Shown: positions 55,037 through 59,815 of the stretch, one piece after another | Numbering within the stretch: position 1 is the first letter of the stretch | How the letters are laid out: each line of letters starts with the position of its first letter | NCBI RefSeq assembly: GCF_028276765.1 | Contig: NZ_JAPYVU010000002.1 | Coordinates: 6,066-70,065, forward strand | Origin: Sulfurihydrogenibium sp. | GTDB taxonomy: Bacteria; Aquificota; Aquificia; Aquificales; Hydrogenothermaceae | Length of the DNA: 64,000 bases | Direction: 5' to 3' | The notes under the pieces: generated by a model | What the model was told of the DNA's origin: nothing | Database searches by the model: none | The model's input: only the letters and a program-made list of their open reading frames with translations | Program-made: the position numbers and the translations under genes

Positions 55037-55441
55037 GTGGTTTTATTGCAAAGAAGAAATACGAACCAAAGAAAAGTTATATATGAAATATTAAAATCTA
55101 CAGATATACATCCAACGGCAGATTGGATTTATGAAAGAGCAAGGAAAGTTATACCAAACATAAGTCTTGGGACAGTTTATAGAAACTTAAAAATACTAAA
55201 AGATGAAGGTTTAATCTTAGAGTTAAATGATGGAAAGCAAAGCAGATTTGACGCAAGGACTGATAATCACCTTCATTTTAAGTGTGAAATGTGTAACAGT
55301 ATTTATGATATAGATTTCAACGCTATTAGTTTACAAATTAATGATAAAATTTTAGACGTTTTTAATGTAAAAAGTGTTGATATTGTTCTAAACGGCATAT
55401 GTCCAAAATGCATAGGAGATGAACGTGAAAAGGATAATTAG
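55037..55441 (+). CDS. Fur family transcriptional regulator (Fur/PerR/Zur-like)
   Basis: 134 aa. RKVIYEIL...HPTADWIYERARKVIPNISLGTVYRNLK DNA-binding domain, HLHFKC-x2-C and C-x2-C structural zinc site. Confidence 0.88.
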   Translation: MVLLQRRNTNQRKVIYEILKSTDIHPTADWIYERARKVIPNISLGTVYRNLKILKDEGLILELNDGKQSRFDARTDNHLHFKCEMCNSIYDIDFNAISLQINDKILDVFNVKSVDIVLNGICPKCIGDEREKDN

Positions 55442-56015
55442 CCCAATAAACCTTAGAGAAGATAGGCTACCACCTGGTCAGCATTGGACGGATCGATTAA
55501 TCATTCTTGGAGTATCTGACCCTCCAGAAATAGATTTAAAATCTTATAGGTTAAAAATATTTGGAGAAGTAGAAGAGGCGGTAGTTTTAACGTGGGATGA
55601 TATCCTCTCTCTTGAAAAAGTTGAGCTTGTAGCGGATTTTCATTGTGTGACAAGATGGAGTTGTAAAGATGTCGTTTGGAGAGGTTTTCATGTAAATGAA
55701 TTAAAAAATCTTGTAAAGATAAATCCAAACGTAAAATCCGTAATGATTCATTCCTTAGATGGATATACAACCAATGTTCCAATTGAGTATTTTTTTGACG
55801 AAGATGTGATTTTTGCTTATGAATTATTCAACGGACCAATTCCGGCTGATAATGGTTATCCACTACGTTTGATAGTACCTAAGCTTTATTCTTGGAAAAG
55901 TGCTAAATTTGTAGCCGGAATAGAATTTATGCTTGAAGATAGACCGGGTTTTTGGGAGCAAAGAGGTTATCATATCTTAGGCGACCCTTGGAAAGAACAA
56001 AGATATTCTGATTAA
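55419..56015 (+). CDS. small cytoplasmic sulfite-oxidase-fold molybdopterin oxidoreductase (YuiH/YedY-like catalytic domain)
   Basis: 198 aa. LPPGQHWTDR, FHCVTRWS (Mo-ligand Cys context) and GYPLRLIVPKLYSWKSAKFV. No signal peptide. The start could be GTG 55425 (AGGAG 6 nt upstream). Confidence 0.82.
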   Translation: MNVKRIISPINLREDRLPPGQHWTDRLIILGVSDPPEIDLKSYRLKIFGEVEEAVVLTWDDILSLEKVELVADFHCVTRWSCKDVVWRGFHVNELKNLVKINPNVKSVMIHSLDGYTTNVPIEYFFDEDVIFAYELFNGPIPADNGYPLRLIVPKLYSWKSAKFVAGIEFMLEDRPGFWEQRGYHILGDPWKEQRYSD

Positions 56016-56027
56016 AGGAGAGTAAAA

Positions 56028-56318
56028 ATGGGAAAATTAAAAGTTGTAGTTGATAGAACGCTATGCGAGGGAATAGGAGTTTGCGTTCCTGAAGCACCAA
56101 AATATATAGTCTTAGATAAAAGACATAAAGCGGTAATAGTAAAGCCGGGAGATAACGTTGAAGAGCTTTTTGCAAAAGTTTCTGAGTTAAAAAGACAAGA
56201 AGCTGTATTAGATTTAACTGTAGATGAAGAAGAGGATATTTTTAGAGCAGCCGAAGCTTGTCCTGTAAAAGCAATATTCATATATGACCCAGAAACCGGA
56301 GAACAACTGTATCCATAG
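56028..56318 (+). CDS. single-cluster ferredoxin, probably [3Fe-4S] type, with internal insertion
   Basis: 96 aa. CEGIGVC (the middle Cys of CxxCxxC is replaced) plus a distal ACPV. Confidence 0.7.
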   Translation: MGKLKVVVDRTLCEGIGVCVPEAPKYIVLDKRHKAVIVKPGDNVEELFAKVSELKRQEAVLDLTVDEEEDIFRAAEACPVKAIFIYDPETGEQLYP

Positions 56319-56326
56319 GAGCCAAT

Positions 56327-56437
56327 ATGTTAGATAAAATTTATTCCATATATGAAAGAAATGTAAAGTTTGTATTATTCATAGTACCTGTAATTCTTTT
56401 TGCTGTAATGGCTTATTTGTACATTAAAAGTGTATAA
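56327..56437 (+). CDS. possible 36-aa single-TM peptide (below the track cutoff)
   Basis: AGGAG SD 5 nt before the ATG. MLDKIYSIYERNVKFVLFIVPVILFAVMAYLYIKSV. Last gene of the fur-Mo enzyme-ferredoxin string. No homology evidence. Confidence 0.3.
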   Translation: MLDKIYSIYERNVKFVLFIVPVILFAVMAYLYIKSV

Positions 56438-56444
56438 GTCATAA

Positions 56445-56960
56445 CGGTTTGGGAAAATTCTGAGTTGTTTGAATTCATAATATCACAAAAGTATGCAATA
56501 GGTGATTTCTTAAACTATGATAAGGTTTTTCTGTGTTATACCATCATATATTTTGCAACATCTTTTTATTAAATTCTTATATCTGTTCGTATACCTTTTG
56601 TCTCAAATAAAATTGCATCTACTGATTTCTCTAAAAATCTTTTACATCTTTTGCTACAAATACACAAACTTTTTACCATTTACATATTAATGTTTAGTGT
56701 CTGTTTGTACCAATTTTCCTGATTTTGTCGGTTTTTGTCTTTATATATCTTTCAGAGTTTATCTATTAAAACCTTTATTTTTCTTTTGCAAGCTTAGGAT
56801 GTTTTTCTATAACTTCTTTATCCCCGATTTTTCATAACTTTAAACTCTCGTATAATATGTCCATGCTTCTTTTAGATTGTACAGGATTTAGAGCATCTCT
56901 CGTTAAATGAAATTTATTAGTTTCATTATGATAAAATAAAAAAACAAAAATAATTCTATC
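56445..56960 (-). pseudogene. decayed rve-family (IS481/IS3-like) transposase gene
   Basis: The minus strand, with multiple stops and shifts, gives ...EVIEKHPKLAKEKIK..., LVQTDTKH-YVNGKKFVY..., AKDVKDFLEKSVDAILFETKGIRTD..., FNKKMLQ..WYNTEKPYHSL... The 3' ~150 nt are clearly homologous to 44770-44900 (+). Confidence 0.55.
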
Positions 56961-56975
56961 TAAAAGAGGACGAGA

Positions 56976-57527
56976 ATGGAAAAGTTTTTTGGTTTGATTG
57001 AACAGATATTTGAAAGGATACTGTGGGAATCAAGATTGATGGTAATTCTTGCAGTAGTTGCATCAGTGCTTGCTGCTTTGACTTTGACTATAGTAGGAAC
57101 ATATGATATCTATCTTGTTTTTAGTGAAATGTTTCATGCTTTTTCAGACCCTCAAGCCTATGAAAACTTTCATAAAGATGCTATTACCCATATTATAAGT
57201 GCAATTGATGCTTATTTAATATCAACAGTGCTTTTAATATTTGGTATTGGACTTTATGAATTGTTTATTAGTAAAATAGATTATGCGGAAAAAGAGACAA
57301 AGTCTTCTAAAATTCTTGTTATTCACTCTCTTGACCAATTAAAAGATAAGCTTGCTAAAGTTATAGTTATGGTTTTAATTGTTACATTTTTTAAACACGC
57401 TGTTAGTTTTAAGTATGAAGAAGCTTTAAACTTGCTTTATCTTTCAATAGGAATACTTTTAATAGCATTGGCTATTTACTTTTTAGCAAAATCTCATCAT
57501 GGAAAAGAACATAGCTCAGAGGAGTAA
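56976..57527 (+). CDS. YqhA-family (UPF0114) membrane protein
   Basis: 183 aa. ERILWESRLMVILAVVASVLAAL start and about 4 TM helices typical of the family. Confidence 0.75.
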   Translation: MEKFFGLIEQIFERILWESRLMVILAVVASVLAALTLTIVGTYDIYLVFSEMFHAFSDPQAYENFHKDAITHIISAIDAYLISTVLLIFGIGLYELFISKIDYAEKETKSSKILVIHSLDQLKDKLAKVIVMVLIVTFFKHAVSFKYEEALNLLYLSIGILLIALAIYFLAKSHHGKEHSSEE

Positions 57528-57530
57528 GAG

Positions 57531-59815
57531 ATGAAAGATTTTACGATGCTTAGTATATCATTAGCTTTAATTGGTGGTATTAGCTGGTTCTTTTTTGGGA
57601 AAAAGTCTAACCAGGAAAAAAATGAAAGTTTATCCGGCGAGCTAGAAACTATACAGCTTAACATCTCAGGAATGCATTGTGCAGGCTGTGCAGCTGCAGT
57701 AGAAGCAACGTTAAAAATGATGGATGGAGTTAAAGAAGCTTCTGTAAACTTTGCCACTTCAAAAGGTATTTTTACATTCGACCCAACTAAAATAACCAAA
57801 CAGCAAATAGTAGATAAAATAAAAGAACTTGGATACGATGCTTCCTTTGATTTAGAAAATTTCGAAAAAAAAAGTTAGAGGAGCTAAATAATCTAAGACA
57901 TAGGCTAATAGTTTCTATTTCTCTCTTTTCTCTTCTTGTTTTATCAATGTTTATAAAATTTCCCTACAATGAATACTTTCAGTTTATCATTGCATCAATA
58001 ATTCAGTTTTATGGTGGTTATGAGTTTTATAAATCTTCATTTATGTCTTTAAAAAATAGACTTGCAGATATGAATCTGCTTGTTTCTCTTGGAACTTTTT
58101 CAGCTTATTTATATTCTGTATCAGTCTTACTTTTTCCTTCTTTTTTTCCGGAAAACATGAGACATGTATATTTTGAAGGCTCATCTGCTATCATTACATT
58201 TGTTTTACTTGGTAGATACTTAGAACAAAAGTCAAAATTAAAAGCAACAGACTTTATGAAAAATCTACTATCTTTAAAGCCAACTTATGCAACCATCATA
58301 GTTGATGGGAAAGAGTATCAAGTAAAGGCAGAAAATATCGTTAAAGGCGATATTGTAATTGTTAGACCTGGTGACAAAATACCTGTTGATGGAATTATTA
58401 TAGAAGGTCAGACAGAGATTGAACAGTCATTTTTAACAGGGGAGTCTAACCTTGTATATAAAAAGGAAGGTGATGAAGTTTTAGGTGGAAGTATAAATAA
58501 AGTTGGTGTAATCAAGATAAAAGCAACAAAAAACGCAAAAGATAGTGTTTTAAATCAGATTATAAACCTTCTTCTTGAGGCACAATCAAAAAAGCCAAAA
58601 ATTGGTCAGCTGGCAGATAGAATATCTCAAGTTTTTGTGCCGTCTGTTTTAATCTTTGCTATTATAGTGTTTAATATTTGGTACTATCTTGGATATCCGC
58701 TAAATTTTGCCTTTACAGCAGCGTTAACTGTTCTTGTGATAGCTTGTCCTTGTGCTTTGGGACTTGCTACTCCGATTGCAATAGTTAATATCGTTGGCAG
58801 AGCTGCAAAAGAAGGAATTTTAATCAAAAATCCCGAATTAATTGAAAATCTAAAAGAGATAGGTATTGTAATTTTTGACAAAACAGGGACTTTAACAGAA
58901 GGTAAATTTCAAGTTGTAAATACATTATACAAAGGAAGTAAAGAAGAGTTAGAAATGATTTTATCTTTGGAGAAAGATATTAACCATCCTATCTCTCAAT
59001 CCATCGTAAATTTTATGAAAGAAAACGGCTTTAATTTTGTTAACATCTCTCAAAAACAGATTTTAGAAGGTAGAGGAATAATTGGTATTTTTGAAAACAA
59101 AAAGTTGTACATTGGAAATAAAAAGCTTTTTGAAGAGATTGGTATAAACATATCAGATGAATTTTTAGAATTTTTAAAGAAAAATGAAGAAAACGGCTAC
59201 ACTGTAATCTTTGGTACTGTTGATGATAAAGTTGTGCTGGCTTTGGCTGTTTCAGATAGTATAAAAAAAGAAGCTTTAGAAGTTGTAAAGTGGTTTAAAA
59301 ATAAAGGTGTAAAAACTGTTCTTCTAACAGGGGATAACGAAAAGGTAGCAAAAAATGTAGCTAAAACTCTTGGCATAGATGAGGCTTATTGGCAGTTGAC
59401 GCCAATAGATAAATATAAATTTATCAAAAACTTAAAATCAGATTATGAAAAAAGTATAGTTTTTGTAGGAGATGGAATAAATGATGCTCCCGCAATGGCT
59501 GAATGCGATGTTGGCATAGCAGTAGAATCAGCTTCTGATATTACAAAAGATGCAGGAGATATAATACTGCTAAATTCTAATCTTAAAGGTGTAATAAAGG
59601 CCGTGTTATTAGCAGAGAAAGGACTAAAAATAATAAAGCAAAATCTATTTTGGGCGTATGTATACAATTTGATTGGAATTCCTGTTGCTGCCGGCTTTTT
59701 ATATCCAATCTTTGGAATCCTACTAAATCCAATGTATGCAGGCATGGCTATGGCGTTTAGCTCAATTACGGTAGTTTTAAATGCATTGAGACTTAGAAGG
59801 ATTTCTTTAGAATGA
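57531..59815 (+). CDS. copA: copper-translocating P1B-type ATPase, interrupted by a -1 frame change in an A9 run (frame-0 ORF 57531-57878; ATPase body in frame -1, open from 57866 to 59815)
   Basis: The N-terminal ORF has one TM helix and an HMA domain (GMHCAGCAAAVE). The body has TGES, CPC (ACPCALGLATP), DKTGTLT, HP (INHPISQ) and GDGINDAP, all intact. The junction read-through gives a normal linker plus helix MA. Confidence 0.85.
57865..57874 (+). other. A9G homopolymer / A_AAA_AAG slippery motif at the copA frame junction
   Basis: g aaa aaa aaa g at 57864-57874. The frame-0 stop TAG is at 57876-57878. Confidence 0.9.

Follow-up and report, generated by a model that had tools for sequence, protein, structure and literature searches.

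The copA gene described here lies on the forward (+) strand of a 64,000-nucleotide (64-kb) stretch of Sulfurihydrogenibium sp. DNA (contig NZ_JAPYVU010000002.1, referred to below as the window), and its coding information is divided between two reading frames that meet in a run of nine adenines. The 5' open reading frame (ORF; 57531-57878) encodes 115 residues, beginning with MKDFTMLSISLALIGGISWFFFGKK, including the metal-binding motif GMHCAGC and ending with ENFEKKS. Its ATG (57531-33) starts 7 nt 3' of a Shine-Dalgarno (SD) sequence, AGGAG (57520-24), the two elements being read directly from the sequence as the initiation region 57520..57533. The encoded protein, of ~13 kDa, comprises an N-terminal transmembrane (TM) anchor (residues 3-22, ...LALIGGISWFFFGKK, 57537..57596) and an HMA domain (57645..57845; Pfam PF00403, E = 2.4e-17). 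The run itself (a57865-a57873) consists of exactly nine A's with a G on either side, and this G-A9-G element (57864..57874) is the putative recoding site. In the 0 frame, the codons GAA AAA AAA AGT lead to a TAG (57876..57878) that would end the 115-residue product on A9 mRNA in the absence of a slip. In the -1 frame, the codons AAA AAA AAG open onto the body of a P-type ATPase, which is publicly annotated as a 622-residue protein starting at ATG 57947 (57947..59815; Pfam E1-E2 ATPase, E = 2.1e-59; Hydrolase, E = 3.7e-27). A TAA at 57889..57891 closes the +1 frame, and an A8 transcript would accordingly read EKKVRGAK before stopping, still specifying a short HMA protein. The original prediction, which had been made from the sequence alone, described the first ORF as a TM helix plus an HMA domain ended by this TAG and placed an intact ATPase body in the -1 frame; both statements were confirmed. 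It had also stated that the -1 frame is open back only to 57866. This needs correction, since the frame is open in the window from 57851, immediately after a TGA at 57848..57850 that closes it 5' of the run.

Insertion of one A in the run and re-reading of one base (a -1 change) give the same 761-residue protein, as had been proposed for the extra A. The fused protein, of ~84 kDa, combines HMA, E1-E2, and HAD domains in Pfam searches, and the junction peptide of the fused reading is NFEKKKLEELNNLR; a DNA version of the junction in which A9 is broken and the encoded peptide is unchanged is AAGAAGAAA. All the expected motifs are intact in the -1 frame: TGES (58436-47), CPC (58745-53), DKTGT (58877-91), HP (58985-90), and GDGINDAP (59468-91). 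CPC is located in TM4, and the P1B-1 signatures YN(x4)P and MxxSS are present in TM5 and TM6, respectively. The residues Y712, N713, P718, M741, S744, and S745 are invariant in an alignment of 20 sequences, which we take to indicate Cu(I) specificity following the Arguello classification. With curated models, the slipped reading scored 576 bits for TIGR01511 (ATPase-IB1_Cu; cut-off 397) and 593 bits for TIGR01525 (cut-off 346). Residues 43-757 aligned in a single stretch to the CopA protein of A. fulgidus (3J09, E = 1.5e-164). The predicted slipped product is therefore a bona fide P1B-1 CopA, an assignment that applies to the slipped (A10 or -1) reading alone.

The alignment to 3J09 places the junction in the linker that joins the N-terminal metal-binding domain to the first membrane helix of the pump, MA. 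The segment of the -1 frame that directly follows the junction (57866..57946, KKKLEELNNLRHRLIVSISLFSLLVLS) matches residues ~78-105 of A. fulgidus CopA and encodes the linker and helix MA, an assignment that draws on the CopA alignment, on an AlphaFold2 (AF2) model, and on substitution rates (below). In the AF2 model of the fused protein, a continuous helix spans the junction (residues 108-139). The annotated start, ATG 57947 (M139 of the fused protein), falls at the end of helix MA, and the pump frame of the window is free of ATG, GTG, and TTG from the run up to this codon. These results agree with the original prediction, according to which reading across the junction yields the normal linker and first helix of a P1B-type ATPase and independent initiation at 57947 would produce a pump lacking this helix. 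As judged from the sequence, the 57866..57946 segment is a region that translation would reach only via a slip, and ATG 57531 is the predicted single initiation site for both products, the pump frame containing no other SD or start codon. The fused pump is predicted to have nine TM helices, namely the anchor, MA, MB, and M1 to M6.

Comparison with relatives, which the original prediction had called for, revealed that both the A-run and the two-frame layout are kept across the Hydrogenothermaceae. An initial scan of genome contigs with the fused protein used over-specific peptide patterns and returned one true relative (S. yellowstonense) together with distant ATPases; other routes were therefore used. 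The resulting junction set consists of 10 loci for which DNA was retrieved and 12 loci from metagenomes, corresponding to 22 distinct sequences from S. yellowstonense, S. subterraneum, S. azorense, Persephonella spp., metagenome-assembled genomes (MAGs) of other Hydrogenothermaceae, metagenomes, and Logan assemblies. In all 22 sequences, the site is exactly G-A9-G and the ATPase lies in the -1 frame, at pump amino acid identities to the window that decrease to 53%. In all of them, the 0 frame is closed 1 to 3 codons 3' of the run and the read-out of an A8 message would end 2 to 9 codons past it. The flanks of the run vary both on the 5' side (TTC, TTT, TCT, ATT, GTA, or CTT) and on the 3' side (TTAGAG, CTAAAT, GAACGG, CTCTTA, and others). 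In most relatives, a TGA overlapping the first G of the run (T-GAA) shuts the -1 frame exactly at this position. Since the -1 frame is shut at the start of the run at most loci and the 0 frame is shut a few codons later, the change of frame must occur inside the run itself. An independent Logan assembly (SRR12226570) matched the window at 100% identity over 3654 nt, including A9.

Protein searches led to the same picture. Nearly all near relatives of the fused protein, from 100% to ~53% identity, are annotated as ATPases of 568-634 residues lacking the HMA domain, and the next outgroup, Arcobacter (~47% identity), has an ordinary fusion of ~725 residues. The search with the 115-residue ORF identified ~75 HMA-only clusters (90% identity) of 114-121 residues, which end with EKK[S/R] plus 0 to 3 residues and which all originate from Hydrogenothermaceae, P. 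marina and Hydrogenothermus marinus among them. In 67 more distant HMA loci, the HMA ORF never ended in a homopolymer, and the uninterrupted homologues of Arcobacter and Campylobacterales have neither an A-run nor an N-terminal anchor. In the public records (L015, L016, L017, L019-L023, and P0001-P0120 in our numbering), the start codons assigned to the pump are inconsistent (ATG, GTG, TTG, or CTG) and helix MA is cut off; the 5' ORF is named 'cation transporter', 'CopZ', or 'Cu2+-exporting ATPase', and none of the source names seen hints at recoding. The records thus pair a 'cation transporter' or 'CopZ' of 114-121 residues with an ATPase of 595-634 residues that has an arbitrary start and no helix MA, and the public annotations of copA across the Hydrogenothermaceae are wrong.

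Ratios of nonsynonymous to synonymous substitution rates (dN/dS) were determined by the Nei-Gojobori method, with the limitation that dS was often saturated (>1). dN/dS was 0.06-0.13 for the HMA ORF and 0.10-0.21 for the ATPase body. For the 23 codons of the linker and helix MA, dN/dS was 0.14-0.3 in the less saturated pairs and reached 0.48 and 0.69 in the two most divergent ones. The low values in the HMA ORF, in the ATPase body, and in the stretch located 5' of any start codon indicate that all three are translated and under selection. The A9 run showed zero changes despite saturated dS. The chance of finding GAA AAA AAA in nine lineages by codon usage alone is ~1e-4. One relative, L021, favors AAG and GAG (frequency of AAA of 0.37) and yet has kept A9. 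In the copA codons of this locus (L021:1582-3860, Logan SRR28863571), AAG outnumbers AAA (38 vs 22) and GAG outnumbers GAA (32 vs 16), suggesting a higher-GC relative.

Conservation of A9 and of the layout in 22 sequences, purifying selection, absence of a start for the pump, and collinearity with CopA support the original claim of programmed recoding, as opposed to error or decay into a pseudogene. Based on this comparative evidence, we consider it highly probable that copA of the Hydrogenothermaceae is a programmed-recoding gene, whichever the route, and all the explanations that do not involve recoding are improbable even when taken together. Translation would begin once, at ATG 57531. On the unaltered A9 message, the ribosome would stop at TAG 57876 and release the 115-residue anchor-HMA protein; the full 761-residue Cu(I) pump would be made only if one extra base were effectively read in the run. 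We propose that RNA polymerase slips on the nine-T template stretch, the length of which approximates that of the RNA-DNA hybrid, thereby generating a mixed pool of mRNAs. Transcripts containing A10 (also A7 or A13) would encode the pump, and those containing A9, A8, or A11 would yield the short protein, their translation ending no more than a few codons past the run. The frequency of slippage would then set a fixed ratio, the tethered chaperone being abundant and the pump scarce. A minor share of the pump could derive from -1 slippage of the ribosome on A_AAA_AAA. We infer that slippage occurs at a useful frequency and is mainly transcriptional.

Several observations bear on the mechanism. 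Stops are located near the run in both of the alternative frames (0 and +1). Since the A8 read-out and the 0 frame both end near the run, each non-productive transcript would still specify an intact short protein. The nine conserved A's exceed the A_AAA_AAA heptamer by one on each side. RNAalifold found 0 conserved pairs 3' of the run in 17 divergent sequences, and six single-sequence folds were no better than those of shuffled sequences at 37 °C (z scores of -1.87 to +0.88, the last value being that of the window). The folds 3' of the run are weak and AU-rich (~-7 to -14 kcal/mol at 37 °C). These thermophiles grow at ~65-75 °C, temperatures at which such folds would melt, and stimulatory RNA structures are implausible in a thermophilic host. 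An Rfam scan of 56300-58400 returned a single sub-threshold snoRNA match, at chance level. None of the 22 junction sequences contains an SD-like element 5' of the run. The lack of conserved RNA structure and SD, the stops in the alternative frames, and the conservation of nine rather than seven A's favor transcriptional slippage, which, on this sequence evidence, is on balance probably the main route. Efficient slippage on a 9-nt run has been documented in vivo (PMC5009743). The original prediction had listed slippage by RNA polymerase as the alternative to a dnaX-type ribosomal heptamer, A_AAA_AAG; the former proposal is the better supported of the two and the latter fails, since A_AAA_AAG is out of phase.

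The in-phase slippery heptamer is A_AAA_AAA (57866-57872, 0 frame), which keeps a second route in contention. Here, RNA polymerase would be faithful and the main event would be -1 programmed ribosomal frameshifting (PRF), the tRNA-Lys molecules paired with AAA AAA (57867-72) slipping back by one base. The heptamer has a genuine X_XXY_YYZ phase and is invariant, a shift of exactly -1 is needed, and it yields the same product as the A10 read-out. In addition, -1 PRF is used by copA of E. coli itself (PMC5009743), and most heptamers, including those of this type, shift measurably in E. coli without stimulators (PMC4066793). The conservation of additional A's on both sides of the heptamer could also result in part from conserved Glu and Lys residues. 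These points weigh against a transcriptional route. Conversely, PRF would require only 7 nt, whereas A9 is conserved, and would have no use for stops in both alternative frames. Neither a conserved downstream hairpin or pseudoknot (no alifold pair, z scores near 0) nor a 5' SD-like stimulator accompanies the heptamer, and A_AAA_AAA causes little shifting in E. coli when no stimulator is present, which counts against the ribosomal route. We therefore regard PRF as unlikely to be the main route.

The composition of the window is a further point in favor of transcription over translation as the level of the slip. Under a first-order Markov model, ~20 A/T runs of at least 9 nt were expected in the 64-kb window and only one, the A9 of copA, was observed; runs of at least 8 nt numbered 11 vs ~49 expected. 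Counts for lengths of 6, 7, 8, and 9 nt were 204, 74, 10, and 1, the ratio between successive lengths dropping from ~0.36 to ~0.13 at the step from 7 to 8. This distribution suggests genome-wide selection against slippage-prone A/T runs, and the avoidance of runs of at least 8 nt suggests that slippage is a real cost. A two-frame junction was found at none of the ten A8/T8 runs of the window. The tRNA scan of the 64 kb detected only tRNA-Pro, tRNA-Val, and tRNA-Asp, and no tRNA-Lys.

Phase variation at the DNA level would also connect the two frames. Replication slippage would interconvert an A9 (pump OFF) and an A10 (pump ON) allele, and the pump would be made by subpopulations. Homopolymers of this length are hypermutable, and poly-A/T tracts are classic switches (PMC3711429). 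However, a switch should turn up in both states, whereas the 22 consensus sequences, which originate from isolates, MAGs, metagenomes, and a re-assembly, all contain A9 and none A10. Full-length proteins of the A10 type were likewise absent from the ~50 near relatives listed. The sole uninterrupted form has a run broken by a G. Within the split clade, no uninterrupted relative other than this form, L014 (P0021, 756 residues), was found; it is 87.6% identical to the split locus L019, indicating that it is nested in this clade. Its junction, obtained from a single Logan contig (SRR11582150, L014:890-1010), reads GAAAAAGAAAAG (EKEKL) and corresponds to A9 plus a single inserted G, which restores the frame and destroys the run. 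The metal-binding motif of L014 is altered to GMHCASCATS. Judging from its sequence, L014 shows that the +1-nt reading specifies a predicted functional pump and that a one-step escape from the split state is available. The rarity of this escape, together with the absence of the more easily accessible A10 allele, argues that the split state is maintained by selection. Phase variation is thus very unlikely as the main mechanism.

The locus could also comprise two conventional genes, one copZ-like and the other encoding an N-terminally shortened pump with its own initiation, perhaps translated by termination-reinitiation. This is how the public annotation presents it, two-gene copZ-copA operons are common, and some distant metagenome loci, such as L050, have this appearance. 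Across the loci, however, neither a start codon nor an SD is conserved in the pump frame. Candidate starts lie at varying places (an ATG at codon 27 in Sulfurihydrogenibium, a GTG or TTG in other loci), the annotated ones occupy differing positions and even include CTG, and none follows an SD-like motif. Four loci contain no ATG, GTG, or TTG within 45 codons of the run. The 27 codons that precede ATG 57947 of the window form an open frame in every locus, evolve under purifying selection, and specify a helix MA homologous to that of a CopA of solved structure, and closure of the -1 frame directly 5' of the run marks the run as the point of entry. Counts from a promoter and terminator scan were at the level of shuffled sequences, with no credible internal promoter for the pump. 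Two independent genes are accordingly a highly improbable explanation. An error of sequencing or assembly in the homopolymer is excluded for practical purposes, as is a recent pseudogene, because, although a single-base break in a homopolymer is the commonest of sequencing artefacts and one error-laden fragment (P0197) reads A8, A9 recurs in 22 independent sequences that stem from different projects, as well as in a re-assembly with 100% identity, dN/dS is far below 1 in both halves with dS saturated, and the catalytic motifs are all intact. P0197 (JGI, 65 residues) ends with EKKVRRVK, which corresponds to the A8 read-out of an S. yellowstonense-type junction, and its N-terminus is also frame-shifted; it looks like an error-rich read and not a real A8 allele.

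The short product has features that set it apart from a mere truncation. AF2 modeled a helix at residues 3-22 and, at residues 39-105, the strands and helices of the HMA fold in the expected order with a predicted local distance difference test (pLDDT) score of ~90. This order and the GMHCAGC motif are those of a CopZ-like metallochaperone. The anchor motif ISWFFF is invariant in 17 aligned homologues, and the wider GGISWFFFGKK is nearly so. No match between the anchor helix and FixS/CcoS or any Pfam family was detected, even at E <= 10. The lysines following the helix imply a predicted N-out/C-in topology with a cytoplasmic HMA domain, a location without which the long form could not continue into helix MA. 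Anchor and split are found together, and the outgroups have neither. Since the pump would have no need of the anchor, whereas a free HMA protein would benefit from it, we infer a function for the short form as a CopZ-like copper-binding protein tethered to the membrane, with a putative role as a chaperone. Several observations weigh against this assignment: scores with the NCBIfam CopZ models (64.6 and 56.5 bits) are under the cut-offs (95 and 91, respectively), the TM anchor is unlike the small soluble CopZ, and the uninterrupted L014 lineage keeps the anchor, which is thus not strictly tied to the split. In addition, and likewise against it, residues 14-103 match the C-terminal part of the NCBIfam model MerTP_fusion (E = 1e-16; 61 bits vs a cut-off of 180), as well as a MerT/CopZ fusion model. 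In the MerTP and MerT/CopZ fusions, too, an HMA domain follows directly on a TM helix that tethers it.

The closest functional parallel is copA of E. coli, in which the site C_CCA_AAG acts with a pseudoknot and nascent-chain effects. Both genes specify a small HMA protein and a full Cu(I) P1B-type ATPase by a -1 change located just after the N-terminal metal-binding domain, the E. coli product CopA(Z) being made by -1 PRF (PMC5009743, PMC7558416). The logic is inverted, as had been anticipated in the original prediction: in E. coli, the pump is the default product and the shift gives the chaperone, whereas in the Hydrogenothermaceae the 0 frame ends early, the short protein is the default, and the slip extends it into the pump. 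In the Hydrogenothermaceae, moreover, the site is an A9 run with no stimulatory structure and the short product is TM-anchored. Since the lineages are unrelated, recoding of copA must have originated independently of E. coli, and the gene described here is an analogue and not a member of the E. coli copA/CopA(Z) system. In the literature consulted on recoding in copA, in P-type ATPases, and in Sulfurihydrogenibium or Persephonella, we found no description other than the E. coli case, although the GeneTack and Recode databases may hold one. The GeneTack survey covered only seven Aquificae genomes and required at least five genes per cluster.

Mechanistically, the nearest system is dnaX of Thermus thermophilus, where a 9-nt A/T run directs transcriptional slippage and is accompanied by stops in the alternative frames (PMC5009743). 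The two genes share a thermophilic host, a run of exactly nine, nearby stops in both frames, the lack of a required RNA structure, and the production of two proteins in a set ratio. They differ in that the long product of dnaX (tau) is the 0-frame protein and the short one results from slippage, whereas copA of the Hydrogenothermaceae needs the slip for the long product. In polarity, the closest systems are the two-ORF dnaX genes (Chlorobi and others, runs of A7 to A10) and mxiE of Shigella, in which recoding is required for the longer product (PMC3711429; PMC5009743). In these genes, as in copA, standard decoding stops early and poly-A/T slippage is needed for the full-length protein; unlike theirs, the short product of copA looks like an independent module (anchor plus HMA) and not a truncated subunit. 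A small default N-terminal protein is also known from the OrfA/OrfAB pairs of IS3 and IS1, where the catalytic body is fused to it by -1 shifting on an A-rich heptamer that is usually accompanied by a stimulatory hairpin or SD. Those are mobile elements, whereas copA is a chromosomal housekeeping or stress gene that apparently followed the divergence of the family. For the tethered product itself, the parallel is CupA of Streptococcus pneumoniae, a membrane-anchored copper chaperone (PMC7558416). Both proteins consist of a metal-binding domain tethered by an N-terminal TM helix, which in the present case would likewise serve a cognate transporter, but CupA has a cupredoxin fold and its own gene, whereas the domain described here is a ferredoxin-like HMA domain specified by the pump gene itself, in its 5' part.

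Taken as a whole, the reading that we put forward, tentatively, is that the Hydrogenothermaceae may have independently evolved a one-gene, two-product copper system with a logic opposite to that of E. coli, in which transcriptional slippage on A9 at ~70 °C would set the balance between an abundant tethered HMA chaperone and a scarce pump. The anchor would concentrate delivery of Cu(I) at the membrane entry platform of the pump. Because slippage depends on temperature and on the supply of nucleoside triphosphates, the chaperone-to-pump ratio could respond to growth conditions. If correct, this would be the second independent case of a copper pump and a chaperone-like partner made from one gene by recoding, arguing that their coupled synthesis is adaptive and not an oddity of E. 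coli. It would also provide a rare chromosomal, non-mobile, and family-wide example of an essential-type enzyme made only via slippage, at a compact recoding site of 11 nt, and would introduce a new type of HMA chaperone, one tethered to the membrane.

The gene located immediately 5' of copA (56976..57527, + strand) encodes a UPF0114 (YqhA-like) membrane protein (Pfam PF03350, E = 9.8e-36). Its TAA stop (57525-27) is separated from the ATG of copA by 3 nt, and the two genes are probably on one transcript. The order UPF0114, HMA, ATPase, peptidase U32 is common to the Sulfurihydrogenibium loci L014, L015, L016, and L019-L021. The UPF0114 neighbor is syntenic in every Sulfurihydrogenibium-type locus, with the peptidase U32 gene on the 3' side, and the Persephonella-type loci do not have it. 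A connection of the UPF0114 gene with copper handling is possible. Farther upstream, the 55419-56318 region encodes a protein with a molybdopterin-binding oxidoreductase domain (PF00174) followed by a small single-cluster 4Fe-4S ferredoxin (PF13459), with no visible tie to copA recoding. Between these genes and the UPF0114-copA unit lies an AT-rich stretch of ~650 nt (56319-56975) with no recognizable gene and only low-complexity ORFs (57 and 46 residues). It includes a promoter-like sequence, TTTTCA-16-TATAAT (56829-56856), of a type no more common than expected by chance, and could hold the promoter or operator of the operon.

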